The notes under the pieces: generated by a model
The model's database searches: none
Seen by the model: the letters and a program-made list of their open reading frames with translations, nothing else
Told to the model about the DNA's origin: nothing
Source of the DNA: Clostridia bacterium
GTDB lineage: Bacteria; Bacillota; Clostridia; Oscillospirales; CAG-272
Direction of reading: 5' to 3'
NCBI GenBank assembly: GCA_017451915.1
Contig: JAFTNJ010000039.1
Location: 87,532-151,531 of the forward strand
DNA length: 64,000 nt
Part shown: positions 21,501 through 64,000 of the stretch, in pieces
How the letters are laid out: each line of letters starts with the position of its first letter
How positions within the stretch are numbered: position 1 is the first letter of the stretch
Translations under genes and position numbers: made by a program

Positions 21501-22543
21501 AGGTCACCGCTGTTGCGACAACCGGTAAAGGAAAGGTATCCACCGCCGGCGTAGCGTCCCACCATACCACCGGCCTGCCCCGAATCGGAGTTGGAAAGAA
21601 TGGTGATGTCCCCCGTGTTGGTGCAGCTGCGGAAGGTTGCCGTGCCGGCAAACTCATCGAACATTCCCACCATGCCGCCCAGCTGCTCCTTGCCGCTGAT
21701 CGCTCCGCTGTTTTTGCAGGATTGGAAGGTCACCTGGGTCACATCTACCTTAACGCTTCCCGCCATGCCGCCCACCTTGGAGCCGGCCGAGGTCAGCGAC
21801 CCGGCAAATTCACAGCCACTGAAAAGCGCCGATCCGGTGCCGTCCACCGCGCCAACGATGCCGCCAACGCAATGGAACAGATTGGTGCCCGACGCTCCGG
21901 TTACGGTAGCATTGGAATAAAGATTGGAAAGGATGGCCGTCTTGCCCGCGGCGGTGATCACCCGGGCAAACAGAGTACCAACAAAGCTTTGCTCGGTTTT
22001 GGATTCCAGCGTGTAAGAAGCGTCCGCCACGGCAAGATCCGTCACGGTAGCCCCTCCGCCCAGATTTCCGAGCAGAGCCTGCCCCCCGGCGGTGCAGGTC
22101 ATAGCAAAGCCCCCCACCGTTTTGCCGTTGCCGTTCAGGGTACCGGCAAAGAGGGCCTCGGGATTGGCTCCCGAAAGGAAAGCCTTCCCCAGATCCACGT
22201 TGGTCTCCAGGGTTACGGTGGCTCCCTCGAAGGTGGTTCCGCCATGAAGCAGAAGCAAAAAGCCAACGAAATCGGCAGCGTCCTTCAGGGAAAACGCGGT
22301 CTTGTCCGCCGCATACCAGGAGGTGTCGGCACCGCTGACCGCGGCCGAGAGCTGAATGGCTCCCCCCGTCCACTTGGAGGCATTCGTTGCCCAATCGGCC
22401 TGATAGCCGATCTTGTCACAACCGCTCTCCTCGGCGGGATAGAAGGTAAGATCCAAAGGCGCATCCGTCAGGGCGTTTCCGCAGGAGGAAAGGCTTGTCA
22501 GGAGCATTGCGCCCAGCAAAAGGATCGACAGTAAGCGTTTCAT
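18563..22543 (-). CDS. large lipoprotein, paralog 1: GLUG-like beta-helix + Cys motif + CBM-like domain + C-terminal ComEC/Rec2-type MBL hydrolase
   Basis: Lipobox LSSC; VGGIVG/CxNxG repeats; CTCGNNC; THLHSDH, FTHED, AGDLE, QVIHHG. Confidence 0.75.
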   Translation of the reverse strand: MKRLLSILLLGAMLLTSLSSCGNALTDAPLDLTFYPAEESGCDKIGYQADWATNASKWTGGAIQLSAAVSGADTSWYAADKTAFSLKDAADFVGFLLLLHGGTTFEGATVTLETNVDLGKAFLSGANPEALFAGTLNGNGKTVGGFAMTCTAGGQALLGNLGGGATVTDLAVADASYTLESKTEQSFVGTLFARVITAAGKTAILSNLYSNATVTGASGTNLFHCVGGIVGAVDGTGSALFSGCEFAGSLTSAGSKVGGMAGSVKVDVTQVTFQSCKNSGAISGKEQLGGMVGMFDEFAGTATFRSCTNTGDITILSNSDSGQAGGMVGRYAGGGYLSFTGCRNSGDLTYLGTVGGGCWMGGIGGYLVGSGRTIESITLNNCHSTGKITANRTSGGLLGFVQTCRIFEATNCTVDAELDFRLNSTKNPYVGAFIGMINLGNAGQMSSYKATISDCEVVAKMTTTDVGNHPTYSGGLIGALRTTTVNLKNVNIDVEMARANCEEDDVFFATLGYNQDNAAVIQPENVTYRWYNEIPTVEEYLEPVNEEAVFRTVGMQYRRNPGVDGVGNSSDDTYDFRYVFGVKNLSADDLFLGFDVTTRTLGEKVTTTTRTVYCPNIYKSLSAGGEVITARECQSDYLFTLTITGIPSVDVELVERDGYTYAYVENCFLSVVPFTAQDPEAERNYGYGLREYGQEPAEVLAFERKHFSPSLPAEFANAVGIISQKKIDYPAGTNLSCVTAAALSKPDQYVLKNTCTCGNNCDWVSQGSTAYRLNENVLFHYYPDPGSYAAQFGESLDRYEAYHTWSFEVEEDGYYEFCFQIRLKGTAGVEETRYALVQIDDESYASQTELTYTIVVQDEILRDNAEDCNAYLVGYGKALTKGKHTITFRMPYDKNGVDKAKSFHIRDVYVVKGAPTANKAEVPTLEGAVLYDGNFNDNCTYVLNKTTYENFLAYNEKMVAAGFALKESRTTTYEYLPFDTPNYREGGDNEKQNHFRTYTNEDFMVHVYFCEGNSNMRVVVANIDEYNDYTAVKEQAGSYEKVTEPMFSLRNTGSSYGQGLCMVYRLSDGRYVVVDGGQLTDGNAKDIQEVRDLYNFMKENSPNGKVVVAAWLFTHLHSDHMNVAWELEKMYRDEIEIQNYMYNFPSYEYARSLPGSNLKVDYYSIRYPRMYRLLERYPNLVAHTGMVYQFADCTIEILFTHEDFYPNSIKNFNLSNTAYKITHAGKTYLVAGDLEEAAEKECNKMAGTLLDADFLQVIHHGYNGQIEFYQYIVNEEYDTTVALWPLPTAKSVTSSLYNRLVANKFLADNLKEIHFSSENYVYYPNK

Positions 22544-22610
22544 AGAGGTCTCCTTTCTTTCAAGGATCCCCCCGAGGGAGAAAGGTGCTCGATCGGGGGG
22601 ATGGGGGAAA

Positions 22611-25600
22611 TTATTCGAAATCGGTAAACACGTAGTTCTCTACGGCGAAGAAGATATTGTCATTGGCAAGATCGTTCTCGTTACGGAACATATCTCTGAG
22701 CCACTGGTTGGCGATGGCACGAGCCGAATCTCCGTTGTAGTAGCTCATGCTCTCTCCCTTGGGCAGAGGCCATACCACGATGGTATCGGTATTGAACTCA
22801 CCGTTGGCATCCAGACCTACGATGTACTTGTAGAACTCGATCTGGCCGTTTCCGCCGTGGTGGGTCACCTGCAGGAAATCAGACTCCAGCAGAGTGCCGC
22901 TCTGCTTAATGGCACGCTTTTGTCCCGGCTCCTCCAGGTCGCCCGCCACCAGGAAGGTCTTGCCTGCCAGAGTGATCTTATAGACGGTGGAAGAGTTGTT
23001 ATAGGAGAAGATCTTTTCGGGGTAGAAATCCTCATGGGTGTGAAGGATATCAATGGTGCAATCGGCAAACTGGTAGGTAAAGCCGGTGTGAGCTACCAGG
23101 TTGTTGTTATTGTTATGGGTTGCGTGGGTGGTGTTGGGGTAATAGAAGGTAAAGTTGGAGTTGCGGTAATTGGAGCCGTACAGGGTGCTGACGTACTCGT
23201 AGGACGGGAAGTTGTAGATATAGTTCTGCACGTCGGCGCCCTTGCCCTGGTACATCTGCGCAAACTTGAACATCACGCTGATGTGGTCGGAATGGTGATG
23301 GGTTGCGATCCACGCCGCAATGGTGATGGTGTTCTCTTCACCGGGCAGGTGGTCGTTCTCCTGGAGCCAATCGTACAAGCGCTCCACAGCCTCACCCTCG
23401 GTGTCGGTCTCCTTCCAGTGGCCGCCATCCACAATGATAAAGCGTCCGTCAGAGAGACGGTACACCAGGCACAAACCGTTGGTAACACCGGTCACCTTGG
23501 TTCCCTTATTGGTTCCCTTGGTCAGAACCAGGTCGGGACCGCCAATATCCAGCATCGCAAACATGGGAGTGGTTACCGCGGTGTAGGTTTCGTTCTCGGC
23601 CTTCACCTCTGCATACTTTTCGTAAGCGTCTACGTAATCCACCACGATACGAATGGACTTGGCACCCTCGGTGTAGTAAACGTAAACCATGTAATCCTCG
23701 TTGGTGTAGAGGTAGAAGTTATTGTACATGGTCTTGTTGCTCGTGTAGTTTGCGGTATCAAAGCTACTGAACTGGTAAGAGGTCCGTCTCTGATCCTGCA
23801 GGGTAAAGCCGGACTTGACCAGCTTTGCGCGATAGGTGGTCAGAGTAGACAGGCTGGTGTCTTCCAGGTAGTAGGTCACGCAGGAATCGTAGTTGGACTC
23901 GTACAGCTGAGCACCCGTGGGCAGCGGAATATCAGCATTCACGGGCAGGGGTGCGCCCTTGACCATGTAGATATCACGGATGTGGAAGCTGGAGCTCTTG
24001 TTCTCATCCACCGTATCGTAGGGAGAACGGAAGGTGATGCTGTGCTTGCCTGCGGTGAGGTAAGCGCCGTAGCCAACGATGTAGGCGTTGTGGTTGGTAG
24101 CGTTATCGCGGTTGGCACCGTCGCGTACGGCTACGTTGTAGTAGAGCTCGGTCTGGCTGCCGTAGGACTGATCGTCGATCTGCACCAGAGCGTAGCGGAT
24201 CTGCGTGCCGCCGTTGGTTCCGTTGAGACGGATGCGGAAGCAGAACTCGTAGTAGCCGTCCTCTGCCACCTCAAAATCCCAAGAATGATAAGCCTCGTAG
24301 CGATCCAGCGTCTCGCCAAAGTACTTGGAATTGGCATAAGTAGTGGTGTCAATGTAGTAGTGATACGGCATAGACGCGGTGTTCTTATAAGCGATGGCAC
24401 CGTTGGCACTCCATCCGGCGTCGCACGCGCCGCCGCAGGTGCAGTTGTACTGCAGACAGTACTGATCATTGCTACCCAGCTTCTTGTAGTTCTGGCAATC
24501 CAGATTCTTGGGAGTGGAGTAGGTGATCTTCTTGCCGGTGAGGATGCCCTGAACACCTGCAAACTTTTCGGGAAGCTTTACGCTGAAGGTCTCGTAACCA
24601 AAGGTGAAGCGCTCGGGATCCTTGGTGTAGTTCAGGATGCCGTGGCCACGGTTGGGCTCGGACTCCTCGGTCTCCTGGGTAAAGGGAACGATGTCCAGAA
24701 TGGTGTTCTTAATGTAGGCCACGGTGTAGCCATTCTCCGCCGTCAATTCTACCTGGTCTGCGGGAACACCCGAAATGGTCAGGGTGTAAAGATAGCTGCA
24801 GCCGTACTGTGCGGCGGTGTACTTGGCGTTATCGCCCTGAATCGTCTTATAAAGCACGGGACAGTAGACCTTCTTGGTGTCGGTGGTCACGTCCTTGCCC
24901 AGTTTCTTCACGGTCACCTCAAAGCCCAGAGCCTTGTCGGTGGTCTCGATCTTGCCGATACCGAATACGAAACGGATATCGTAGCTGCCGTCAGCGTTCA
25001 CGCGGTACTGCTGACCAACGGGCTTGAAGCAGGAGATTTCGGAAGGATCGATAAAGTCATTAATGCGTACGAAGGAATCTCTTGCGATGTAAGCCAGATC
25101 GGTTACGGTAAAGAAGGATTTGGAGGAAGTGAGGGTGGGAGCATCACCGGTACTGGCGCCGTCGGAATAACCGCCCAGAACCACGCCGGCGTAATCGTCG
25201 TTGCCGCAGCCATCACCGCGAACGAAGCGCGCGGAGACCTCACAGCCGCTGATCTCAAAGGTGGTAGCGCGAGCCACACCGATCAGGCCGCCAACGTAAG
25301 TGATGTTGCCAATGGGATCTCTGTGGCGAATGGTGCCTGCCACCGAGCAATTCTCGATGACGGCAGGAGATGCCTTGGAAGACAGGTTGATGTTTCCTGC
25401 CAGACCGCCAAAGGCACTGTACTTTTGCTCCTGGCAAATAAACTCCATGTCAGCGTTCACGGTGCAGTTCTTCATGGTGAAGTTGTTCGTACCCTGAATG
25501 GCACCCAGGATGCCGCCGGAGCAACGGTTGGCACCCACAATATTACCGGTATTGGAGCAGTTGGTAATATTTACCGTCTCGGCAACCGCGCCGGAGTAGT

Positions 25601-26696
25601 TGAAGAAATATCCGCCGATACCGGCAACCCAAGCACCGTTGCTGCCTCCGGTACCGTGCATGGAATCGTAAGTGATCTTTCCCGTGTTGGAGCACTTGTC
25701 AATGGTCAGAACCGAGTTGTTCTTACCGGTATAGTTACTCAGAATACCGGCCATTCTGGAACCACTGTTGCCGTTGGGCATGATCAGCGCGCCGTTGTTG
25801 GTACAATTCGAAATGGTGGCCGTGCCGTCCATACCGGTAAGGCTACCAATGATACCCGCGGTATAGGAGGAACCCGAGATCTTTGCATTGTTGATGCAGT
25901 TGGTAACGGTCAGGGTTCCCTTCCAGCCGCTGATCACGCCCACAATGCCTGCGGTATAGTTGCCCTTGTTGGTCAGGGCCGCGCCGTTGGTGCACTTGTC
26001 GATGATCAGCGTACCTGCGCCGGAGGCCGAGCCGATGATACCGCCAATGTTGGAAACGGACTTGGTGCCGTCGGCCGTGGAGCGGGCGATCTTACTGGTG
26101 CTGTCAACGATGACGTTGGAAACCGTTACGGTCTTTCCCGATACACCGGTGATCTTGGAGATCACAACACCAAAGTTGGAGGTTGCCGCTTCGGTAGGCT
26201 TCAGGGTGAACTGACCCTTGACCACCTTCAGGTTCTTTACGGTAGCCGCACCGCCAATGGCACCCAGCAGGGACTGGTTGCTCTCGGAGGTAAAGGTTGC
26301 CTTAAAACCGCCGATCTCATAATTTTGACCGTCGAAGGTTCCCTGGAAGTAGTTCGAGGAGGTGGGAATGGCCCAGGCCTTATCGCCCAGGTTGATGTCA
26401 TTCTTCAGCTTCACGGTCTTGCCGGCAAAGGTCGTGCCGGAGGCCACAAGCTCAACAAAGCCCTTGAGGTCAGCACCGTCTGCAAGATAGAAGGTGGTTG
26501 CAGAGGTGTTGGCGGTGTACCAGGTCTTATCCACCGCGGTACCGTTCCACGCGGTTCTGGAGGTATAGGCCACCGCAGTGGAGTCCTCATCTCCAAGGTA
26601 CGCGTCGAGGTCGAGTTGTCCCTGCTGCATTCCGCAGGATGCCAGGATCGACATCAGCATTGCGAACAACAGAAGGACGGAAATCAGTTTTTTCAT
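22611..26696 (-). CDS. large lipoprotein, paralog 2 (same architecture)
   Basis: Lipobox LASC; AGIVG/CxNxG repeats; CTCGGAC; THHHSDH, THED, AGDLE, QVTHHG. Confidence 0.75.
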   Translation of the reverse strand: MKKLISVLLLFAMLMSILASCGMQQGQLDLDAYLGDEDSTAVAYTSRTAWNGTAVDKTWYTANTSATTFYLADGADLKGFVELVASGTTFAGKTVKLKNDINLGDKAWAIPTSSNYFQGTFDGQNYEIGGFKATFTSESNQSLLGAIGGAATVKNLKVVKGQFTLKPTEAATSNFGVVISKITGVSGKTVTVSNVIVDSTSKIARSTADGTKSVSNIGGIIGSASGAGTLIIDKCTNGAALTNKGNYTAGIVGVISGWKGTLTVTNCINNAKISGSSYTAGIIGSLTGMDGTATISNCTNNGALIMPNGNSGSRMAGILSNYTGKNNSVLTIDKCSNTGKITYDSMHGTGGSNGAWVAGIGGYFFNYSGAVAETVNITNCSNTGNIVGANRCSGGILGAIQGTNNFTMKNCTVNADMEFICQEQKYSAFGGLAGNINLSSKASPAVIENCSVAGTIRHRDPIGNITYVGGLIGVARATTFEISGCEVSARFVRGDGCGNDDYAGVVLGGYSDGASTGDAPTLTSSKSFFTVTDLAYIARDSFVRINDFIDPSEISCFKPVGQQYRVNADGSYDIRFVFGIGKIETTDKALGFEVTVKKLGKDVTTDTKKVYCPVLYKTIQGDNAKYTAAQYGCSYLYTLTISGVPADQVELTAENGYTVAYIKNTILDIVPFTQETEESEPNRGHGILNYTKDPERFTFGYETFSVKLPEKFAGVQGILTGKKITYSTPKNLDCQNYKKLGSNDQYCLQYNCTCGGACDAGWSANGAIAYKNTASMPYHYYIDTTTYANSKYFGETLDRYEAYHSWDFEVAEDGYYEFCFRIRLNGTNGGTQIRYALVQIDDQSYGSQTELYYNVAVRDGANRDNATNHNAYIVGYGAYLTAGKHSITFRSPYDTVDENKSSSFHIRDIYMVKGAPLPVNADIPLPTGAQLYESNYDSCVTYYLEDTSLSTLTTYRAKLVKSGFTLQDQRRTSYQFSSFDTANYTSNKTMYNNFYLYTNEDYMVYVYYTEGAKSIRIVVDYVDAYEKYAEVKAENETYTAVTTPMFAMLDIGGPDLVLTKGTNKGTKVTGVTNGLCLVYRLSDGRFIIVDGGHWKETDTEGEAVERLYDWLQENDHLPGEENTITIAAWIATHHHSDHISVMFKFAQMYQGKGADVQNYIYNFPSYEYVSTLYGSNYRNSNFTFYYPNTTHATHNNNNNLVAHTGFTYQFADCTIDILHTHEDFYPEKIFSYNNSSTVYKITLAGKTFLVAGDLEEPGQKRAIKQSGTLLESDFLQVTHHGGNGQIEFYKYIVGLDANGEFNTDTIVVWPLPKGESMSYYNGDSARAIANQWLRDMFRNENDLANDNIFFAVENYVFTDFE

Positions 26697-26737
26697 ACGC
26701 TTGAAATCCTTTCCAAAAATAAAATTTCTGTTCCTAT

Positions 26738-26766
26738 ATTATAGCAGACACAAAAAAAGTTGTCAA
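26738..26766 (-). promoter_or_regulatory. consensus sigma-A promoter of paralog 2
   Basis: TTGACA-17 bp-TATAAT with TG extension. Confidence 0.8.
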
Positions 26767-26922
26767 GACGAACCATAAAAAATCCTTTTTCCCCCGATCC
26801 TTTTTGGCGTTTTATACAAATAAAGAGCAGTTTTTTTGGCAGTTCCATTCGATGGTTCTCGGCGGAAAAAGGAATTGCCCCCGACCACCCTTTTGGGAAG
26901 CCGGGGGCAACGGATTGAACCG

Positions 26923-29900
26923 TTAATTAAAATCGGTGAACACGTAGTTTTCGCTTGCAAAGAAGATATTGTCATTTGCAAGGTCATTCTCGTTACGGAA
27001 CATATCTCTGAGCCAACGCATTGCAATGGCGCGGGCGGAGGTTCCCTCGTACCAGGACATATCCTCACCCTTGGGCAGAGGCCAAACGATGATGGTATCG
27101 GTATTGAACTTACCGTTGGCATCCAGGCCTACGATGTACTTGAAGAACTCGATCTGGCCGTTGCAGCCGTGGTGGGTAACCTGCAGGAAGTCGGACTCCA
27201 GCATGGTGCCGCACTGCTTGTTGGCCGCCTTTTGACCGGGCTCCTCCAGGTCACCGGCGATCAGGAAGGTCTTGCCCGCAAAGGTGATCTTGTATACGGT
27301 GGAGGAGTTGTTGAAGGAGGAGATCTTTTCGGGATAGAAGTCCTCGTGAGTAAAGAGAATATCAATGTTGCAATCGGCAAACTGATAGTTGAAGCCGGTA
27401 TGAGCGATGAGATTGTTGTTACGCTGCATCAGGTTGTGCATATTGGGGAACCACTTGCTGTAATAATCGGGGTTACAGGTGGAGCCCGAAACCGTCTGCG
27501 CGTAATCGTAGGACGGGAAGTTGTAGAGGTAGTTCTGGATCTCTACCTTGCCGTTCTGTCCGTACATCTCCTCAAACTTCCACTCTACGCTGATGTGGTC
27601 GGAGTGATGGTGGGTAATGATCCACGCCGCAATGGTGAGCTTGTTGTTCTCGCCGGGCAGATGGTCATTCGCCTGGAGCCAATCGTACAAGCGCTTTACG
27701 CCCGCACCGTTGGTATCGTTTTCGAACCAGTAGCCGCCGTCCACAATGACGAAGCGTCCGTCGGAGAGACGGAAGACGTAGCACATACCGTTGGTTACCG
27801 TCCAGCTGGGATTAGCGTCGTTCACACCGCCAATGTCCAGCATTGCAAACAGAGGCGTGGTCACGGTCTCGTAGGTCTTGTTCTCGTTCCGAACCTCTAC
27901 GTACTTTTCGTACTCGGCAATATCGTCCACCACCACGCGGATCTTGCGGGCACCCTCGGTGTAGTACACGTAGATCATGTAATCCGCATTGGTGTAGAGG
28001 TAGAAGTTGTTATACAAAGGCGTGTTCTGCTTGTGATTCTCGGAGTCAAAGGCGCTGGTCTTATACTCGGTCGTGCGCTCCTCCTGCAGAACGTAGCCGG
28101 CAGCCTCCAGCTTCTGGCGGTAGGCATCCAGCGTCTTCTTGGTGGTGTTGTTCAGAATGTAGGTGCAGGTGCTGTCAAAGTTGCCGTCGTACAGGGTAGC
28201 ACCGTCCAGCATGGGAATATCCGCCTGAGAGGGCTCGGCCGCACCCTTGACCAGATAGATGTCACGAATGTGGAAGCTGATGTTCTTGTTGATCTCCTCC
28301 GTATCGTAGGGGACACGGAAGGTGATGCTGTGGGTTCCCTTGGTGAGGTACTTGCCGTAGTTGGAGAGGTAGGAATCGTGGTTTGCGGCATTGTCACGGA
28401 GAGAACCGTCACGCACTACCACGTTGTAGTAGAATTCGGTCTGCTCGCTGTAGCACTCGTCGTCAAACTGTACCAGGGCGTAACGGGTCTGGGTACCTCC
28501 CTCGGAGCCGTTGAGACGGATGCGGAAGCAGATCTCATAGTAACCGTCCTCGGCCACCTCAAAGGTCCAGGTGTGGTACGCCTCGTAGCGATCCAGCTCC
28601 TCGCCAAAGTACTTGCTGTTGGCATAGCTGCTGGTATCGATGTAGTAATGGTAAGGAACGTTGGCGTTCTTTTTGTAAGCAATGGCACCGGTGGAGCCCC
28701 AGCCGGCCTTACATACGTCGCCGCCGCAGGTGCAGTTCTTTTGCAGAACGTACTGATCGTTGCTGCCCAGCTGCAGGTAGTTCTGACAGCCCAGGCCCGA
28801 AGCAGGATTGTAGGTAACGTTGTATTTGCTCAAAATTCCCTGCACACCCTCAAACTTTTCGGGCAGGAAGGAGGAGAAATCCTTGACCTCAAAGGTGTAG
28901 GTCTCGGGGGTCTTTGCAAAATCCGAAATGCCCATGGAGGTGGTCGCCTCGGCATCGGCGTTCACCTTGGCAAAGGGCAGGATGCTGATGATGGTATCCT
29001 TTACGTAGGCGGCGGTGTAGTTGCCAAAGTCCTCAAACTCCACCTTGTCGGCGGGAATTCCCTTGATGGTGGTGGTGTAGAAATATTTGCAGCCGTAATC
29101 GCCGGGGTTGTAGGTCACGTTGCCGCCCTTGAGGTTGGCGAGCACGGTGTTGCCGCTCTCGGAGGTGGTGCTGACGTTGACCTTGGTGCCCAGCTCCTTA
29201 AGAACCAGGTCGGCGCCAACAAGGGCGTCGTCGGCTTCATGGTGAACCACACCAAAGACGAAGCGGATATCGTAGGTACCGTCGGCGTTCTTGCGGAACT
29301 GCTGGCCCAGGGGCTTGAACACGGTGGTGTCGCTTTCCAGGATCAGGAAGTTCTCGGCATCGGCTACGCCGTTGTGATATTTGTAGGTGACGTTATTGGT
29401 GGTCAGGGTGGCCGAGCCGTTCTCGTTCAGACCCAGGGCCACGTTGATCACGTCGTCCTCCTCGCAGTTCTTCTTGCTAAACTCCACGTCCACGTCACAA
29501 TCGGACAGGGCAATGCTACTGGAGCGGATGGCACCGAACAGACCGCCGGCGTAAACGGCAACGGCCTGGGTCTCGTTCACCGTCAGGTGACCGCTGACCG
29601 TACAGTTGGAGATCTTTGCCTCGGTGCTGCTGTTGGTATGAATAATACCCACCAGACCGCCAACGTAGAAGTTACCGGTGTGCATGATATTAAAGGTGAG
29701 GGCAGCGTTGACGCTGCAGTTTTCGATCACCAGGGTGTTGCAGCGCTGAATGAAGCCCGCAAGGCCGCCCGAGGTACGGTTGGCCACCAGCGCGCCGGTG
29801 TTGTGACAGTCACGCAGGGTCACGGAGCCGAGCTGAGAAGCACCGGTGCCGTAAACATAGCCCACGATACCGCCCATCCAGGCACCGCCGTTCTTGGCAC

Positions 29901-30918
29901 CCGTGTAGGAAATAATACCCGAGTTCTTACAGCCGGTGACGGTAAGACCGCCGTTGGTTCCGTCAAAGTGGGCAAGAATACCTGCCGCCTGGCCGTTGCC
30001 GGAGCTCTCAATGATGGTTACGTTGGCGTAGTTGACGCAGTTTTCGATCACCACGTCGATGGTTCCGCTGTTCAAGGAACCAACGATGCCGGCGACGTTA
30101 TTGCCCGCGGAGATCTTGCCAAAGTTATTACAGCCCTTCACGGTCACGCCAACCACACCGTCCTCGGTACCGCCAAGGATACCGGCAACGTAGCTCTTGG
30201 TGGAGCTGATGGTGGCCGACGAATTGCAATTCTCAATAACGATGGAGCCCTTGCCGCGAACGATACCGATCACGCCACCCACGTAAGTGACGCTCTTGGA
30301 ACCGCTCTTCTCGCTGATGGTACCGCCGGCTTCCACGCCGGAAACGGTAACCGTCTTTCCCTTTTCGGTCACAACGCAGCCAATGACCTGCGCCACGCCA
30401 ACGGTAGCGGCAGACGCATTGATGGTGATGGAACCCGACTCCACGCGCAGGTTCTTTACCGTGGCACTGCCGCCGATGGAGCCCAGCACCGACTGCTTGC
30501 CGGTGGTAGCCGTCAGCTTAAAGCCGCCGATCTCGTGGCCCTTGCCGTCGAAGGTGCCCTTGAAGTAGTTATCGGAGGAGGGAATGACCCAATCCTTACC
30601 GCCCAGGTTGATGTCCTTCTGCATTTCGATGGTCTTTCCTTCAAAGTCCACCGCGCCGGAGGATGCGTACACCAGCTCAATAAAGCCCTTGAGATCCGCG
30701 CCGTCCGAAAGATAGAAGGTGGAGGCGGAGGGATTGCTGGTATACCAAGAGGTATCGGTGCTGCCGTTCCACGACGGCTCACCCGCAAATGCTACGTTGG
30801 AGTAGTCTTCCTCCAGCTCGTAGCGTCCAAGCTCGATCTGTCCCTGTTGCATACCGCAGGATGCCAACATGGAGAGCATCATGCCGCACAACAGCAAAAT
30901 AGAAATTAATTTTTTCAT
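26923..30918 (-). CDS. large lipoprotein, paralog 3 (same architecture)
   Basis: Lipobox LASC; VGGVIG/CxNxG repeats; CTCGGDVC; THHHSDH, FTHED, AGDLE, QVTHHG. Confidence 0.75.
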   Translation of the reverse strand: MKKLISILLLCGMMLSMLASCGMQQGQIELGRYELEEDYSNVAFAGEPSWNGSTDTSWYTSNPSASTFYLSDGADLKGFIELVYASSGAVDFEGKTIEMQKDINLGGKDWVIPSSDNYFKGTFDGKGHEIGGFKLTATTGKQSVLGSIGGSATVKNLRVESGSITINASAATVGVAQVIGCVVTEKGKTVTVSGVEAGGTISEKSGSKSVTYVGGVIGIVRGKGSIVIENCNSSATISSTKSYVAGILGGTEDGVVGVTVKGCNNFGKISAGNNVAGIVGSLNSGTIDVVIENCVNYANVTIIESSGNGQAAGILAHFDGTNGGLTVTGCKNSGIISYTGAKNGGAWMGGIVGYVYGTGASQLGSVTLRDCHNTGALVANRTSGGLAGFIQRCNTLVIENCSVNAALTFNIMHTGNFYVGGLVGIIHTNSSTEAKISNCTVSGHLTVNETQAVAVYAGGLFGAIRSSSIALSDCDVDVEFSKKNCEEDDVINVALGLNENGSATLTTNNVTYKYHNGVADAENFLILESDTTVFKPLGQQFRKNADGTYDIRFVFGVVHHEADDALVGADLVLKELGTKVNVSTTSESGNTVLANLKGGNVTYNPGDYGCKYFYTTTIKGIPADKVEFEDFGNYTAAYVKDTIISILPFAKVNADAEATTSMGISDFAKTPETYTFEVKDFSSFLPEKFEGVQGILSKYNVTYNPASGLGCQNYLQLGSNDQYVLQKNCTCGGDVCKAGWGSTGAIAYKKNANVPYHYYIDTSSYANSKYFGEELDRYEAYHTWTFEVAEDGYYEICFRIRLNGSEGGTQTRYALVQFDDECYSEQTEFYYNVVVRDGSLRDNAANHDSYLSNYGKYLTKGTHSITFRVPYDTEEINKNISFHIRDIYLVKGAAEPSQADIPMLDGATLYDGNFDSTCTYILNNTTKKTLDAYRQKLEAAGYVLQEERTTEYKTSAFDSENHKQNTPLYNNFYLYTNADYMIYVYYTEGARKIRVVVDDIAEYEKYVEVRNENKTYETVTTPLFAMLDIGGVNDANPSWTVTNGMCYVFRLSDGRFVIVDGGYWFENDTNGAGVKRLYDWLQANDHLPGENNKLTIAAWIITHHHSDHISVEWKFEEMYGQNGKVEIQNYLYNFPSYDYAQTVSGSTCNPDYYSKWFPNMHNLMQRNNNLIAHTGFNYQFADCNIDILFTHEDFYPEKISSFNNSSTVYKITFAGKTFLIAGDLEEPGQKAANKQCGTMLESDFLQVTHHGCNGQIEFFKYIVGLDANGKFNTDTIIVWPLPKGEDMSWYEGTSARAIAMRWLRDMFRNENDLANDNIFFASENYVFTDFN

Positions 30919-57417: not shown

Positions 57418-57936
57418 ATGTCAAAATATCTGCAAGGAATTGCGCTGCTGGTGATTCTGGGAGTGCTGTTGGGAGCGGTCTCCTGCGCCCCGTCGGTGCC
57501 CGCGCCCCTGGAGGCGTTGGCAGGCAGCTTTTCCGCACAGGTGGGCGGCGAAATGAACGGCGTGGAATTCTATGCGGACATGGAAATCCTTCGGGAAGGG
57601 GAGACGACGCAGATCCGGCTGATCTATCGGTCGCCCGTGGCCCTGGAGGGGCTGACGCTGGAGCAGACGGGCGGGAAGGACGCCCCTGTTACGGTGCGCT
57701 TGGGAGAGCTGGCCCTGGAGGTTTCGGCCGCGGCGGTGGCGGGCTGGATGCGCCCGGCCCGCGTACTTCTTGATCTGCAGGAGCAGGATCTGCAATCGGC
57801 CGAGCGAACCGGGGAGGACTCCTATCGCTTTGTTTTTTCCGGAGATCAGACCCTGACCGTAACCGCCCAAGGGCTCCCTCTTGCCTACGAGAGCCCCTCC
57901 CTCACCTTTTCCATCCTGCGCTTTCAAAACAAGTAA
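57418..57936 (+). CDS. hypothetical lipoprotein
   Basis: AGGAGGAGG RBS; MSKYLQGIALLVILGVLLGAVSC lipobox; beta-rich. Confidence 0.7.
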   Translation: MSKYLQGIALLVILGVLLGAVSCAPSVPAPLEALAGSFSAQVGGEMNGVEFYADMEILREGETTQIRLIYRSPVALEGLTLEQTGGKDAPVTVRLGELALEVSAAAVAGWMRPARVLLDLQEQDLQSAERTGEDSYRFVFSGDQTLTVTAQGLPLAYESPSLTFSILRFQNK

Positions 57937-58110
57937 TGGTTTTCGTTCCCCATCCGTGCCATGGGGAACCGCTTTCGCGTCCTGCTGTTCAATGACTACG
58001 TCTTGCAAAAAACCTCGATTTTTGTTCCAAAAACAGGGCGTAGCGGGCGGATTTTTCGTTTTTTTGCACAAACAGATGCAAAAGTCACCATTGTTCGTAT
58101 ATTTTGTACA

Positions 58111-58139
58111 TTGACACAAAGCCGTTTTTGTGGTAAAAT
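58111..58139 (+). promoter_or_regulatory. sigma-A-like promoter upstream of glg operon
   Basis: TTGACA-17 bp-TAAAAT; second candidate TTGATT-16-TATAAT at 58355-58382. Confidence 0.55.
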
Positions 58140-58497
58140 AACAAGTGTATTTTGAAGTTTTGATTGATTTGCATAAAATTGAAAGCGATTCTTGTTAAAA
58201 ACGAACATAACTAAAAACGGCGAAAATCCAAAGGGACGGTTGCAAATCCTGAAAGAACGGGGCAAATCTCCGCGTTTTTTCTCAAAAAATGCCACACGTT
58301 TCTGTGATTTCGCCATTTTTTGTGCAATAATCAACAAAAACAAGCAGTTCCCTCTTGATTTTTTTGTGATATGTGATATAATATTAGGAGATAATAGCAT
58401 CACTCCCCTGTTCCGCGGATCCAAACATAAAAATCCCGGATCCAACACATTCTAAAAAGAGCGCGGGGAATCTGCAAAAAAAGAAAGGAAGTGCCGC

Positions 58498-60447
58498 ATG
58501 CAACCCCAAGACCTGCCCATTCTCAGCACCGCAACCGCGGCACCTCCTGCAGAGGAGCTGGCACAGTTCTATTTCCATCAGGGCACATCGGCCCGCGCCT
58601 ACGCCTTGCTCGGATCACACCGCATCCCGGGCGGCCAACGGGTCTTTCGTGTCTGGGCCCCCAACGCCGAGTACGTCGCCCTCTGCGGTGATTTCAACAC
58701 CTGGGATCCGGAAGCGCACCCCCTGCGACGCCTCTCCGAGGAGGGGATCTGGGAGGGACGCCTGCCCGCGGATCTGGCTCTTCCCGGGCATCGCTACAAG
58801 TATTTCCTCTCGGGGCAGGGCAGGGAGGCCATGAAGGCCGATCCCTTTGCCACGGTCTGCGAGGACGCCCCCAACGGAGCCTCGGTCATTGAGGATGGGG
58901 AGGTACACCCCTGGCGGGACGCCGGCTGGCTGGCCTACCGCAAGGGACGCTTTGGTCGGGACACGGCCAAGGCTCAGGCTATCAACATTTACGAGGTCGA
59001 TCCTCTCACCTGGCAACGGGACGGAAGCGGCGAGCCTCTGTCCTATCCCACGCTGGGGCGGGAGCTGGCCTCCTACGCCAAGCAAATGGGATACACCCAC
59101 GTGGAGCTTCTTTCTCCGGGAGCGCTTCTCTGGGAAAGCGGCGCCGTCCGAGGGCTTTACGCCCCTCTGTCACGGCAGGGAGGTCCCGCCGCCCTGATGG
59201 AGCTGGTGGACAGTCTCCACGAGGCCGGCATTGGAGTCATCCTCGGCTGGAACCCTCTGTGGTTCCCCACGGACGAGCCGGGTCTGCACCTCTTTGACGG
59301 CACCGACCTGTACGGCAGCGAGCAGAGCGGCGCGGCACCGGCAGGGACCCGTGCCTTTGCCCTGGGACGCCCCCAGGTGCGCAGCTATCTCATCTCCTGC
59401 GCCGCGTACTGGGCCGAGCGTTACCACGTGGACGGCCTGCATCTGCCCTCGATCTCGCCCCTGCTCTATCTGGATTACGGCAAGGGACCGGGAGAATGGA
59501 CCCCCAACCGCTACGGCGACAGCCGGGATCTGGACGCGATGGATTTCTTCCGGCAGCTCAACGCCCGCATGGCGGCGGATTACCCCGACGTCATGATGAT
59601 CACCGAGGAGACCTCGGGCTGGAGCAACGTTACGGGATCCGCGCCGGGAAGCCTGGGATTTACCCTGCTTTGGCAACGGCGGTGGCAGACCGATGCCCTC
59701 AACTACCTCAAGGAGGACCCTCTGTGGCGGCATTACCACCACGAAAAGCTTCTGTCCCCTCTGCGGGACGCTCCCCACGAGAGCTATTTGCTCCCCCTCT
59801 CCCACACCGAGGTGGGGTTGGGAAGGCCCTCTCTGCTGGAGCGATCTCCGGGAAGCTACGAGCAAAAATTTGCCGGGGTCCGCACCTTCCTCACCTATCT
59901 CATGACCCATCCGGGAAAAAAGCTGCTCTTTATGGGCAGTGAATACGGGGTCTTCCGCCCCTGGCGTCCCGAGCAACCTCCCGAATGGTTTATGACCGAT
60001 TTTGAGATCCACGCAAGGCTGCAACGCTTTGTGGCGGCCCTCAACCATTTCTATCTGGAGCAGCCTCCCCTCTGGGAGCTGGACGGCCGATCCCGGGGCT
60101 TTGCCTGGATCGACGCCAATAATCGGGAGCAAAGCGTTTATTCCTACCGCCGCGCGGACCGCGAGGGAAGGGAGCTGATCATCTTGCTCAACTTCCTGCC
60201 GGTCAAGCGGGAGGAGTTCCGCCTCGCCGTCCCCCGGGCAGGGGTGTACGAGGAGGTCTTTAACTCCGACGCGCCGGCATACGGCGGCCAGGGGATCCTC
60301 AATCCCGGCAAGTACAAAACCGAACCCTATTACGCAGGGGAGCACGGACACGCCATTCGGGTCACCGTTCCCCCCACCGGCGCGCTGATCTTTCGGTGCG
60401 TCGAGCGAGCGCCTCGCAAAACCGCGACCCGCGCCCGCAATGGATGA
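58498..60447 (+). CDS. glgB: GlgB-like GH13 branching enzyme homolog, predicted catalytically inactive
   Basis: FRVWAPNA, QMGYTHVEL, HPGKKLLFMG present, but DGLHLPSI replaces DxLRVDAV and SHTEV replaces SHDEV. Confidence 0.8.
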   Translation: MQPQDLPILSTATAAPPAEELAQFYFHQGTSARAYALLGSHRIPGGQRVFRVWAPNAEYVALCGDFNTWDPEAHPLRRLSEEGIWEGRLPADLALPGHRYKYFLSGQGREAMKADPFATVCEDAPNGASVIEDGEVHPWRDAGWLAYRKGRFGRDTAKAQAINIYEVDPLTWQRDGSGEPLSYPTLGRELASYAKQMGYTHVELLSPGALLWESGAVRGLYAPLSRQGGPAALMELVDSLHEAGIGVILGWNPLWFPTDEPGLHLFDGTDLYGSEQSGAAPAGTRAFALGRPQVRSYLISCAAYWAERYHVDGLHLPSISPLLYLDYGKGPGEWTPNRYGDSRDLDAMDFFRQLNARMAADYPDVMMITEETSGWSNVTGSAPGSLGFTLLWQRRWQTDALNYLKEDPLWRHYHHEKLLSPLRDAPHESYLLPLSHTEVGLGRPSLLERSPGSYEQKFAGVRTFLTYLMTHPGKKLLFMGSEYGVFRPWRPEQPPEWFMTDFEIHARLQRFVAALNHFYLEQPPLWELDGRSRGFAWIDANNREQSVYSYRRADREGRELIILLNFLPVKREEFRLAVPRAGVYEEVFNSDAPAYGGQGILNPGKYKTEPYYAGEHGHAIRVTVPPTGALIFRCVERAPRKTATRARNG

Positions 60448-60477: not shown

Positions 60478-61662
60478 ATGTTCAAGAAAAAAGAGTGCGT
60501 AGCCATGTTGTTGGCAGGCGGCCAGGGCAGCCGTCTTTACGCATTGACACAAAAGACTGCCAAGCCCTCGGTTTCCTACGGCGGCAAGTACCGCATCATC
60601 GACTTCCCCCTTTCCAACTGCATCAACTCCGGCATTGATACCGTCGGAGTCTTGACCCAGTACCAGCCCCTGCGCCTCAACGAGTACATTGGCAACGGTC
60701 TGCCTTGGGATCTGGACCGCACCTTTGGCGGTGTTAAGATCCTGCCCCCCTACCAGGGCTTTGGCGGTGCCGATTGGTACAAGGGCACGGCCAACGCCAT
60801 CTGGCAAAACATGGAGTTCATCAACCAGTACGATCCCGAATACGTGATCATTCTTTCGGGCGACCACATCTACAAAATGGACTACGCCAAGATGCTGGCG
60901 TACCACAAGCAAAAGGGTGCCGACTGTACCATCGCGGTCATTGAGGTTCCCATGGAGGAGGCCAGCCGCTTTGGTATTATGAGCACCACCGAGGACGGCA
61001 CCATCTTCAAGTTCAGCGAAAAGCCCAAGAACCCCGATAGCAACAAGGCGTCCATGGGCATCTATATCTTCAACAAGAACAAGCTGGAGAGCTACCTCAG
61101 AGAGGACAGCAAGGATCCCGATTCGGCCAACGACTTTGGTAAGAACATCATTCCCGCCATGCTTGCCAACAAGGAAAAGATGGTGGCTTATCCCTTCGAG
61201 GGCTACTGGAAGGACGTTGGAACCATCTCCTCTCTGTGGGAGGCCAACATGGATCTTTTGGGCGACCGCCCCGTGCTGACCCTGAACGACGAGACCTGGC
61301 GCATTTACAGCCGTCACGGTGCCGAGGCACCTCAGTTCATCGGCGAGGACGCCACCGTGATCAATTCCTCGATCACTGCCGGATGCGAGATCCTGGGTGA
61401 GGTACGCAACAGCGTTCTGGGCCCCGGCGTTCGCGTAGGCAAGGGCGCCATCGTTGCCGATAGCGTCATTATGGCAAACGTAACCATTGAGGACGGTGCC
61501 ACCGTTTGGTACTCGATCCTGGACGAGAACGTGACCATTGGTAAAAACGCCACCGTTGGCGAATCCCGCGATACGGCCACCGAGGTTGCCGTGATTGGTG
61601 CCGACGTTGTAATTGCTCCCGGCAGCGTTACGCCCGCCGGCGCAATGATTTCCGAGAATTAA
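60478..61662 (+). CDS. glgC: glucose-1-phosphate adenylyltransferase
   Basis: [42 protein letters not shown]. Confidence 0.95.
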
Positions 61663-61676
61663 GGAGGGGACACAGT

Positions 61677-62807
61677 ATGACTGCAGCAGGATTGATCTTT
61701 TCCAATATCCACGATCAAAGCATTCCCGAAATGACGCGGATGCGTACCATGGCGAGCATTCCCTACGGATGCCGCTACCGCCTGATCGACTTTGCCCTTT
61801 CCAACATGGTCAACTCGGGCGTTACCAACGTGGGCGTTATTGCTCACTACAACTATCAGTCCCTTCTGGACCACATCGGCACCGGTAAGGACTGGGATCT
61901 GGCCCGTCGCTCCGGCGGTATCAAGATCCTTCCCCCTTATATCACCGCGTACGAGAACCGGGCGGCAGGCAAGCTTTACGAGAACCGCCTGGAGGCCGTG
62001 CTCGGAGCCATCAACTTCATCAACCGTTGCAACGCCGACTACCTCATTCTCTCGGACTGTGACGTGATTCTGAACATCGACCTGAAGAAGGTTCTGGAGG
62101 AGCACATTCAGTCGGGAGCTTACATGACCCTGGTGGGCAAGGAGCTGACCGCGGGCGAGAGCTATGAGACCGCCGTCAACGTCCTCACCGCCGACGAAAG
62201 CGGACGTTTGACCGACCTGGCCTGCTACAAGCCCGAGGGCGAAGCGGTCTGCGTTTCCACCAACATTATGATCGTTGGACGGAGCGACCTGCAAAACATC
62301 GTCTCCGAGTCGATTGCCAGAGGCTACAAGAGCTTCTATCAGGACATCATTGCAAAGCAGATGGCAAGCAAGCTGATCCGCGTGCACAAGTTTGAGGGCT
62401 GGTGCACCCACATTTCCTCTCTGGAGGGCTACTTCCAGAGCTCCATGGATCTGCTCAAATCCGAGGTACGGGACAGCCTGTTCAACGCCGAGGATCGCCG
62501 CATTTACACCAAGATCCGCAACAGCGCGCCTTCTCATTATTCCAACCGTGCCGAGGTCAAGAACAGCCTGGTTGCCGACGGTTGCGTCATCGACGGCACC
62601 GTAGAGAACTGCATTCTGTTCCGCGGTGTACGGGTAGGCAAGGGAACGGTTCTTAAGAACTGCATTCTGTTGCAGGACACTTACGTTGGAGACAACGTCA
62701 ACCTCAACTGCGTGATCACCGATAAGAACGCCGTAATCAAGGACGGCCGCAACCTCTCGGGACACGAGACCATGCCCTTCTTTATCGGCAAGGATCAAAC
62801 GGTTTAA
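61677..62807 (+). CDS. glgD: glucose-1-phosphate adenylyltransferase subunit GlgD
   Basis: YRLIDFALSN, DHIGTGKDWDL; lacks the GGxGxRL catalytic loop; follows glgC. Confidence 0.92.
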   Translation: MTAAGLIFSNIHDQSIPEMTRMRTMASIPYGCRYRLIDFALSNMVNSGVTNVGVIAHYNYQSLLDHIGTGKDWDLARRSGGIKILPPYITAYENRAAGKLYENRLEAVLGAINFINRCNADYLILSDCDVILNIDLKKVLEEHIQSGAYMTLVGKELTAGESYETAVNVLTADESGRLTDLACYKPEGEAVCVSTNIMIVGRSDLQNIVSESIARGYKSFYQDIIAKQMASKLIRVHKFEGWCTHISSLEGYFQSSMDLLKSEVRDSLFNAEDRRIYTKIRNSAPSHYSNRAEVKNSLVADGCVIDGTVENCILFRGVRVGKGTVLKNCILLQDTYVGDNVNLNCVITDKNAVIKDGRNLSGHETMPFFIGKDQTV

Positions 62808-62869
62808 AATCAGCACAGCACCCACTGTGAAAGTTTTTCTCAAAGTTTGGAATACGCACCGCCCCCACC

Positions 62870-63083
62870 GTGAAAGTTTTGGTCGAGCTTTTTCAAAAGC
62901 TCGCGCGGTGGAGGCTGCGCAAGCCTCCTCGCCGTCCGCAGACGGCGAAACTCCCCAAACGGCGTTTTTCTTTTGTTAACTTTTCTTTTTGCGCCAATGG
63001 TGTCAAAAAGAAAAGTGGCTGACAACTTTATGCTGTTTTTGGGATTGTGCAAACTCCTTAGTCACTTTTATCAAAACTTTCAC
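62870..63083. repeat. MITE-like element containing three-hairpin repeat copy B
   Basis: 12-bp perfect inverted repeat GTGAAAGTTTTG (62870) / CAAAACTTTCAC (63072); internal 62873-62956 homologous to 34825-34907. Confidence 0.65.
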
Positions 63084-63158
63084 CGCGTGGTAGTGCGAAC
63101 ATTGCGAGTTACGTTAAAAATAATTCTTTCAAAATGAGATGAAAGGGAAACAATTACT

Positions 63159-64000
63159 ATGAAAAAAATCATGTTCGTAGGTGCCGAGGTTATGCCCTTT
63201 GCGGCAACCGGCGGCCTTGGGGACGTGCTTGGCTCTCTGCCTCAGGCTCTGGCGGCGGAAGGGGATACCGACGTTCGCGTGGTACTTCCTCTGTACGCGG
63301 CTGTGTCCGAGGATTGGCGTCGCAAAATGAAGCAGGAGAGCGTGTTCTACGTATCTCTGGCTTGGCGCGAGCAATACTGCGGCGTGTTCAGCCTGAAGAA
63401 GGACGGCGTTACCTACTATTTCCTGGATAACGAATACTACTTCAAGCGTCCCAATTTGTACGGCTTTTTTGACGACGGTGAGCGTTACGCTTACTTCTGT
63501 ATGGCAGCCATGGAGCTGATGACCCGTCTGGACTTCTTCCCCGACGTGCTTCACGCCCACGACTGGCAGGCGGCTCTGTCGGTGGTGTACCTCAACTGCA
63601 TCTACCGCAACCGTCCCGGATACGAAAATATCCGCACCGTATTCACCATTCACAACATCGAGTATCAGGGCTTCTATGATTTCTCCATTCTCGGTGACGT
63701 TTTCTCCCTTGGCGAGAACGAGCACTCCCTGATGGAGCACGACGGATGCATCAACCTGATGAAGGCCGCCGTAGAGTGTGCCGATCGGGTTACCACCGTC
63801 AGCCCCCGGTACGCCCAGGAGATCCAATGGGCCGAGTACGCCCACGGTCTGGAGGGCTGCCTCTGCCGCAACGCTTACAAGCTCAGCGGTATCCTCAACG
63901 GCATCGACTACAAGTATTACAATCCCAAGACCGACAAGGTCATCGCCGCCCCCTTTGGCGTGCGCAGTCTTGCCGGAAAGACCAAGAACAAGCTGGCTCT
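63159..64000 (+). CDS. glgA: glycogen synthase, 3'-truncated by window edge
   Basis: Translated by hand: MKKIMFVGAEVMPFAATGGLGDV...HAHDWQ...TIHNIEYQG...GILNGID. Confidence 0.93.
   Translation, partial: MKKIMFVGAEVMPFAATGGLGDVLGSLPQALAAEGDTDVRVVLPLYAAVSEDWRRKMKQESVFYVSLAWREQYCGVFSLKKDGVTYYFLDNEYYFKRPNLYGFFDDGERYAYFCMAAMELMTRLDFFPDVLHAHDWQAALSVVYLNCIYRNRPGYENIRTVFTIHNIEYQGFYDFSILGDVFSLGENEHSLMEHDGCINLMKAAVECADRVTTVSPRYAQEIQWAEYAHGLEGCLCRNAYKLSGILNGIDYKYYNPKTDKVIAAPFGVRSLAGKTKNKLA

Follow-up and report, generated by a model that had tools for sequence, protein, structure and literature searches.

What keeps the gene of a branching enzyme at the head of a glycogen operon once the residues that would let it branch have gone? 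The question is posed by a stretch of 64,000 nucleotides from a Clostridia bacterium, referred to here as the window (G000:C34:87532-151531); G000, the genome under study, is a metagenome-assembled genome of 2.2 Mb in 79 contigs that is 87% complete. In this window an ATG-started open reading frame (ORF) of 649 residues encodes a homologue of the GH13_9 branching enzyme GlgB, and it is the first gene of an operon, glgB-glgC-glgD-glgA-glgP, that runs along one strand and continues past the window, glgP lying outside it (Table 1). We refer to this gene as the dead glgB. Its product is read here, with moderate confidence, as a non-catalytic, probably glucan-binding GlgB derivative that was retained after branching had been taken over by a second enzyme.

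Curated models place the protein among the GlgBs: NF008967 gives it 605.5 bits against a cut-off of 577, and TIGR01515 gives 528.7 against 463.95; under NF003811 its 572.4 bits fall short of the required 741. Its best solved relatives are branching enzymes, led by 6joy (E 1.5e-129) and followed by 8zqa, the 5gq and 5gr entries, 3k1d and 1m7x. Pfam recognizes the domains at both ends of the protein, and its catalytic-domain model PF00128 found no match at E<=0.001. An AlphaFold2 model built from a 49-sequence alignment has a mean pLDDT (predicted local distance difference test) of 83 and a pTM (predicted template modelling score) of 0.87; pLDDT falls below 50 only at residues 1-16, 207-217, 258-262, 272-282, 423-425 and 644-649. 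Compared with 6joy in Foldseek, the model reaches template modelling scores of 0.88/0.92. The Pfam matches at the ends and the model between them give the architecture of CBM48, (beta/alpha)8 barrel and C-terminal beta-sandwich. The enzyme's frame is thus predicted by the model to have been retained and its cleft to have been let go.

The catalytic residues were read from alignments to the solved 6joy, 8zqa and 5gqw and to 59 intact orthologues. Region I, which is ILDWVP(S/A)HF in intact relatives, reads ILGWNPLWF; region II has gone from GLRVDAV to GLHLPSI, region III from IAEES to ITEET, and region IV from SHDEV to SHTEV. The positions of the catalytic triad are accordingly held by Pro317, Glu370 (retained) and Thr437. 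Among the other invariant GH13 residues, Gly250, Trp255 and His315 stand in for the originals, the Tyr of the WGYQ loop is deleted, and only His436 is retained. The region I changes are shared, except for a W/Y difference, with the sister species G078 (GWNPLYF), as is the HLPS of region II (GLHLPSL). All eight key residues are present in 61 of the 70 GlgB matches of the genus, so the changes in the dead glgB are not a matter of chance. A retaining GH13 transglycosylase requires both a nucleophile and a transition-state Asp. Since this mechanism needs both, we infer that branching by the dead protein is excluded and that it is unable to act as a transglycosylase of this kind; the product, predicted to be transcribed and translated, would no longer form the covalent glucosyl-enzyme intermediate. 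Sequence and fold make the protein a GH13_9 GlgB, but it lacks the catalytic residues that define the enzymes of that family.

The gene is nevertheless kept by selection. A protein search returned one close relative, a protein of 646 residues at 70% identity (P0003), all seven of whose cluster members are 645-646 residues long. It comes from G078, a genus-mate of G000, in which the operon has the same five genes in the same order. Across 646 aligned codons the dead genes of the two species are 69.5% identical, with three one-codon gaps and no frameshift or stop; because they have the dead motifs in common, parsimony makes the inactivation older than their split. The Nei-Gojobori method gives a nonsynonymous rate (dN) of 0.21, a synonymous rate (dS) of 0.76 and a dN/dS of 0.276, with a 95% range of 0.22-0.35 and a maximum of 0.39 over 300 codon resamplings. 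In the same species pair, the other operon genes have ratios of 0.019-0.096 at 90.7-98.8% identity (glgC 0.036 and 97.7%; glgD 0.096 and 90.7%; glgA 0.063 and 94.4%), and the upstream syntenic calibrators range from AdoHcyase (0.079) and an AraC-type regulator (0.108) to a DUF5722 protein (0.264; 71% identity) and alanine racemase (Alr; 0.336; 68.5%). On this scale, the dead GlgB evolves as a moderately constrained working protein does, unlike non-coding sequence. Under simulated uniform mutation, an open frame survived in 5 of 5000 runs when 10% of sites were substituted and in 2 of 5000 when 13% were; about 4% of the possible single-base changes in the gene (226/5571) create a stop. A first-pass annotation, made from the sequence of the window, had proposed a catalytically dead, full-length GlgB at the head of the glycogen operon, retained rather than neutrally decaying. 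The alignments bear out the 649-residue frame, the altered regions I, II and IV and the lost WGYQ segment; glgC, glgD, glgA and then glgP do follow; and retention is what the dead state common to G078, the open frame, a dN/dS well under 1 and the conserved promoter and ribosome-binding site argue for. That annotation had noticed neither the relaxed constraint nor the recurrence of the loss within the genus, both described below. Also upstream of the gene lies an ORF of 232 residues (57421-58119, - strand) that matches nothing in Pfam or NCBIfam; 121 of its residues align to G078 at 43% identity with a dN/dS of 0.735, and most likely it is either no real gene or one that evolves very fast.

What selection has kept is unevenly spread over the protein. 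Domain by domain, the comparison of G000 with G078 gives a dN/dS of 0.275 for CBM48 and 0.26 for the catalytic domain; the C-terminal domain, in which identity reaches 92%, has 0.108. Of 245 columns that are at least 95% conserved among the 59 intact relatives, G000 keeps 28/29 in the N-terminus and CBM48, 7/9 in the linker, 26/26 in the C-terminal domain and 123/176 in the catalytic domain; the corresponding figures for G078 are 27/29, 9/9, 26/26 and 122/176. The 61 lost positions concentrate in the active-site loops (residues 205-220, 250-258, 315-322, 391-398 and 437-448), and the same segments are lost in the other dead lineages. The C-terminal domain is the most constrained part of the protein: its identity in the dead pair exceeds that of the catalytic domain (92% against 69%, a ratio of 1.33), whereas the ratio in 17 intact pairs is 0.55-0.98.

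The loss is not confined to one species. The genus was represented by 78 species genomes, 70 of which hold a GlgB match at E<=1e-100. Besides the 61 with all eight key residues, these comprise three C-terminal fragments whose regions II-IV are intact and six dead proteins (G000, G078, G053, G044, G070 and G010). In six of the eight genomes that have no such match, the place directly before glgC is taken by an ORF that derives from GlgB and has degenerated further (G069, 607 residues; G059, 630; G015 and G075, 506; G066, 492; G001, 432), all of these ORFs being open and each lacking the nucleophile or regions III-IV; the remaining two are G055 (76% complete) and G090 (60% complete). A degenerate GlgB ORF of 432-649 residues thus precedes glgC in 12 of the 78 genomes. 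Outside the genus set, a database protein of 634 residues with six members (P0094) is dead too. A second dead pair, G066/G075 (about 500 residues), has a dN/dS of 0.22 (0.16-0.28), as against 0.056 for the glgC genes of the two genomes. In the GlgB tree, the dead forms fall in three places in one run and require four changes in another, the long branches shifting between runs; the glgC tree (37 genus rows) contains the group (G015,(G001,(G000,G078))) and requires six changes, at least two of them forced by well-supported branches. Within this one gut genus, then, the enzyme has become a non-enzyme no fewer than two and as many as six times. A separate set of four glgB copies retains every catalytic motif and is interrupted by a single in-frame stop: L005 (G019; TAG), L065 (G045; codon unspecified), L082 (G058; TAA) and G046:C55 (TGA). 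Sequencing error, recent pseudogene formation or read-through might account for them.

If the operon's GlgB no longer branches, another enzyme may do so or the product may be linear, the two possibilities that the first-pass annotation had named. The first is supported in the relatives and has found no counterpart in G000, where a search for an active glgB or a GH57 enzyme yielded neither: the only GlgB-family match is the dead gene itself. GH57 was found in none of G000, G078 and G044, and long ORFs of G010, G053 and G070 gave weak partial matches to it (19-40 bits). The sole PF00128 match of G000 is a neopullulanase- or cyclomaltodextrinase-like GH13 protein with intact motifs, encoded about 8 kb downstream; it has 673 residues and matches the cyclomaltodextrinase and maltodextrin glucosidase models below their cut-offs. 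The sister species, by contrast, has a second branching-enzyme gene (P0128; G078:C174, L093:2817-4898). Its motifs are intact (LLDVVHSHA, GFRFDGVTS, VAEDMS and ESHDQALVGDKT), and its match to the GlgB models spans their whole length at about 300 bits, under their cut-offs. Its best matches in the PDB are eukaryotic, 4bzy/5clt at E 1e-205 and the rice enzyme 3amk at 1e-193, those to bacterial GlgBs reaching only 1e-56, which marks it as a GH13_8-type enzyme; the label combines these matches with the subfamily definition given in two published accounts (PMC10254366, PMC6339891).

An enzyme of this type occurs in 21 of the 77 other genus genomes, among them all 11 of the others with a degenerate GlgB and 10 of the 64 with intact motifs. 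Put differently, it accompanies 11 of 12 degenerate GlgBs, G000 being the exception. It is likely to be the provider of branching in the relatives. Intact GlgBs that co-occur with it tend to sit on long branches, and one such pair (G080/G042) has a dN/dS of 0.209, as would be expected if redundancy came first and relaxed constraint and the loss of catalysis came after. The enzyme is common in gut Clostridia, where source annotations name it either a branching enzyme or an 'alpha amylase C-terminal domain-containing protein'.

On the reading we favour, a eukaryote-type GH13_8-like enzyme encoded elsewhere would first have made the operon's GlgB redundant. Constraint on the active-site loops would then have collapsed, while CBM48, the C-terminal beta-sandwich and the barrel as a frame would have stayed under selection, so that the product would be maintained as a folded three-domain protein. 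At present it may assist glycogen synthesis or storage as an accessory protein that binds alpha-glucan without catalysis and is made alongside GlgC, GlgD, GlgA and GlgP. It would bind glucan through its peripheral domains and could serve the operon by, say, holding chains, presenting them or attaching to granules. The order of these events, the glucan binding and any partner are what we infer.

Several observations weigh against this reading, and many of them lean towards a different one: that the gene is a functionless relic in slow decay, its frame kept open only to spare the expression of glgC-D-A-P (by polarity or translational coupling) and the cost of a misfolded, possibly toxic protein made in abundance. 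We consider this possible, though less likely. Constraint is NEVERTHELESS relaxed, dN/dS being about four times the median of 16 intact GlgB pairs from the genus, which range from 0.036 to 0.209. In the GlgB tree, seven dead rows have root-to-tip lengths of 1.41-2.19. Intact rows span 0.51-0.85 where the second enzyme is absent (50 rows) and 0.59-1.35 where it is present (nine rows), in a descriptive comparison that is uncorrected for kinship. Composition has drifted as well: in six of six full-length dead copies, the guanine-plus-cytosine content of the first and second codon positions exceeds what a line fitted to the intact ones predicts, by about 4 and 3.5 residual standard deviations in G000 (0.670 against 0.605 expected; 0.473 against 0.413). 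The relatives form an in-frame series of 607, 506, 492 and 432 residues, all open and directly before glgC, in which the shrinkage to 432-506 residues, with the loss of most of the C-terminal domain in G001, looks like ongoing decay. Moreover, neither a promoter-like site on the + strand nor a terminator-like site was found in the 30-bp gap between the dead glgB and glgC, and one reason for the first gene to keep an open frame could be that a stop would exert polarity on glgCDAP. Yet polarity alone predicts a dN/dS near 1, not the 0.276 found (resampling maximum 0.39) or the 0.108 of the C-terminal domain. The relic account also sits poorly with the near-complete retention of conserved positions in the C-terminal domain and in the N-terminus with CBM48, with a rate that equals those of working neighbours such as alanine racemase, and with the low ratio of the second dead pair. 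A clean in-frame deletion would end the cost, yet the gene is full length in two species and in all seven cluster members.

Two further cautions concern the history and the association. The locus is mosaic in at least one pair, G053 and G010, whose dS is 0.16 in glgC and 1.34 in the dead glgB, so trees and rates are to be read cautiously. In these two genomes (L048 and L052), glgC is 97% identical and the adjoining dead glgB 51% identical, a discordance that suggests a recombination event which broke the locus close to where glgB meets glgC. The counts that tie degenerate GlgBs to the GH13_8-type enzyme are not phylogenetically independent; well-supported branches provide only two independent pairs, both in the expected direction. 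The exception itself also counts against a takeover by a second enzyme, because family, protein and tblastn searches did not find the GH13_8-type gene in the 87%-complete G000 assembly. In the runs that hold the dead glgB, short contigs about 81-89% identical to the P0128 gene of G078 were recovered (three runs, at an 80% likeness threshold), for example one from run X2 with 181 differences in 1048 bases at depth 62 and one from run X1 with 129 in 693 at depth 10; they are not assignable to G000, because other members of the genus may share the gut samples. A protein search with P0128 gave 99% identity within G078's own species and then no full-length relative above 81%. Synteny is uninformative, since G001 and G078 do not share the surroundings of the gene and the corresponding contig of G000 is broken by a rearrangement. 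Two G078 genes missing from G000 at syntenic sites (G000:C22:13638-14655 and C33:54490-54583, compared with G078:C8 and C25) had been taken for alpha-1,6 enzymes, and a scan revealed that they are not glycogen genes: one site holds a raffinose-synthase-like gene with an AraC regulator and a generic (alpha/alpha)6 hydrolase, a raffinose-type island, and the other a phosphotrehalase-like GH13. That G000 truly lacks a branching enzyme strikes us as a minority prospect, if a substantial one. Somewhat less probable still is that the species has none at all and that GlgC/D, GlgA and GlgP make an unbranched, granulose- or amylose-like alpha-1,4-glucan, with the dead GlgB, through its retained CBM48 and C-terminal domain, as a glucan-binding chaperone or granule protein that keeps the linear polymer tractable; if true, enzymes would have been turned repeatedly into structural proteins of the granule across the genus.

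The remaining alternatives carry far less weight. The protein might still be an enzyme, in which Glu370 and His436 work with new residues in another alpha-glucan reaction, such as hydrolysis or non-covalent chain transfer; both residues are present in G000 and G078, and the altered region I and II motifs are conserved between them. We think this very improbable, since Pro occupies the nucleophile position and Thr or Arg that of the transition-state Asp, the loops of the subsites have given way to ones with predicted disorder, and other dead lineages have lost the Glu too (to A, D, A, D and K). We know of no GH13 chemistry that proceeds without the nucleophile. An artefact of assembly or binning is hardly credible even for a metagenome-assembled genome in 79 contigs: the same protein occurs on three NCBI/ENA contigs and a near-identical one in an independent Logan assembly, two animal-gut metagenome runs contain 98-99% of the gene's sampled sequence words, the sister species has the same dead state in the same operon, and the gene is internal to a 160-kb contig.

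A non-catalytic, retained GlgB derivative of the kind we favour resembles several known systems in part. Solved GH13_9 GlgBs are available from Rhodothermus obamensis (6JOY), Cyanothece (5GQU) and E. coli (1M7X/4LPC), together with 8ZQA and 3K1D. The dead protein is like these in its full-length homology and its fold of CBM48, barrel and C-terminal domain, and like its intact relatives in its position at the head of glgB-C-D-A-P. It departs from them in having other residues in place of the nucleophile Asp, the Asp and His of region I, the Arg of region II and the Asp of region IV, in its missing SWGYQ loop, in leaving the Pfam catalytic model unmatched and in evolving roughly four times as fast. 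The second enzyme of the relatives, for its part, resembles the GH13_8 enzymes human GBE1 (4BZY/5CLT) and rice BEI (3AMK), with a full-length match and all motifs intact.

GlgD and plant ISA2 are non-catalytic members of alpha-glucan enzyme families, each of which works in a heteromer whose other subunit is a catalytic paralogue. The dead GlgB would be comparable, as a functional analogy, to plant ISA2 and to the GlgD of its own operon, in that catalysis has been lost and the protein kept in the pathway; unlike them, its sole candidate catalytic relative, the GH13_8-type enzyme, is 24% identical and encoded elsewhere. The first-pass annotation had proposed a scaffold or regulatory role by analogy with GlgD, which the dead GlgB might conceivably have. 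A closer precedent for the defect itself comes from Waddliaceae and Criblamydiaceae, in which, according to two reports, a GlgA-GlgB fusion with a defective branching domain exists beside a second gene, glgB2 (PMC7935935, PMC11046441). There, as here, the GlgB of the GlgC pathway is defunct and the lineage has a second branching enzyme of other origin. The chlamydial defect, as described there, accompanies gene fusion and the loss of glgC and glgP, and the authors read the pathway as disappearing; in the present case, by contrast, the operon is intact, the catalytic residues are replaced and purifying selection operates. Apart from this fusion, a literature search that did not reach most subscription journals found no account of a bacterial glg operon in which selection maintains a GlgB that has lost catalysis.

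The features of the locus are collected in Table 1. The block predicted as a promoter differs by one base from that of G078 within a poorly conserved leader, and its sequence suggests promoter function; the context of the ribosome-binding site and start codon (GAAAGGAAGTGCC.CATG) is conserved between the two species. A look for sequencing runs that contain the gene listed no RNA run among them. A further near-consensus promoter-like site, also conserved in G078, lies about 360 nucleotides upstream of the dead glgB (58111-58139, + strand; TTGACA, 17 nucleotides, TAAAAT; 11/12 matches), and the operon may have two promoters or one long leader. In an operon that is otherwise tightly packed, glgD and glgA are separated by 351 bp (62808-63158), with a terminator-like hairpin at 62814-62829 (+ strand); glgA and glgP may have a transcription start of their own. 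Full-length GlgA scores 620.1 bits against NF001898 (cut-off 603), and the glgP past the window encodes a phosphorylase whose G078 orthologue is 98.8% identical (TIGR02093, 1049 bits).

Table 1. Positions, in the window, of the dead glgB, its domains and motifs, its expression signals and the operon genes that follow.
Feature	Position	Strand	Remarks
Sigma-70-like promoter (predicted)	58355..58382	+	TTGATT, 16 nt, TATAAT with TG extension; 10/12 matches in consensus scan
Shine-Dalgarno-like GAAAGGAAG	58483..58491	+	6 nt ahead of the ATG of the dead glgB; from sequence
Dead glgB	58498..60447	+	649-aa GH13_9 branching-enzyme homologue without catalytic residues
CBM48 domain (aa 38-118)	58609..58851	+	Pfam PF02922 CBM_48, 72.3 bits
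Degenerate loop in place of SWGYQV segment (aa 205-220)	59110..59157	+	From alignment
GH13 region I remnant VILGWNPLWFP	59236..59268	+	D250G, H255W
GH13 region II remnant VDGLHLPSISPLLY	59428..59469	+	R315H, nucleophile D317P
GH13 region III MMITEETSGW	59593..59622	+	Acid/base Glu370 retained
GH13 region IV remnant LLPLSHTEVGLGR	59788..59826	+	H436 retained, D437T
C-terminal all-beta domain (aa 537-634)	60106..60399	+	Pfam PF02806 Alpha-amylase_C, 68.9 bits
glgC, glucose-1-phosphate adenylyltransferase	60478..61662	+	NF003670, 583.1 bits (cut-off 470)
glgD, non-catalytic adenylyltransferase subunit	61677..62807	+	TIGR02092, 348.1 bits (cut-off 236.6)
glgA, glycogen synthase, 5' part	63159..64000	+	Continues past the window; 478 aa in total

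Other gene families were noted around the locus and elsewhere in the genome. Downstream of glgP (G000:C34:154980-160078), two ORFs of 569 and 502 residues with ATPase-like motifs may be MutS-like, as judged from sequence alone; the GH13 protein of 673 residues is encoded after them. Within the window, at about 18700-30000 (G000:C34:106257-117544), there are several tandem paralogues of a family of some 680-700 residues that is multi-copy also in G001:C57. A separate family of 546 residues occurs in up to six tandem copies on G000:C79 and in three on C12.

The genes of a bacterial glycogen operon are commonly assumed to encode enzymes throughout. In this one, the branching enzyme has become a non-enzyme and the rest of the operon is intact, and in the genus this loss is nearly always accompanied by a eukaryote-type branching enzyme encoded elsewhere. 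Automatic annotation calls the dead gene an active GlgB, because the NCBIfam cut-off is passed; as a result, when the metabolism of such gut bacteria is reconstructed, branching would be credited to the wrong gene. Should the dead protein have a function, bacteria would possess in it an equivalent of the plant starch proteins that lack catalysis, and it would offer a handle on how the structure of glycogen granules is controlled.

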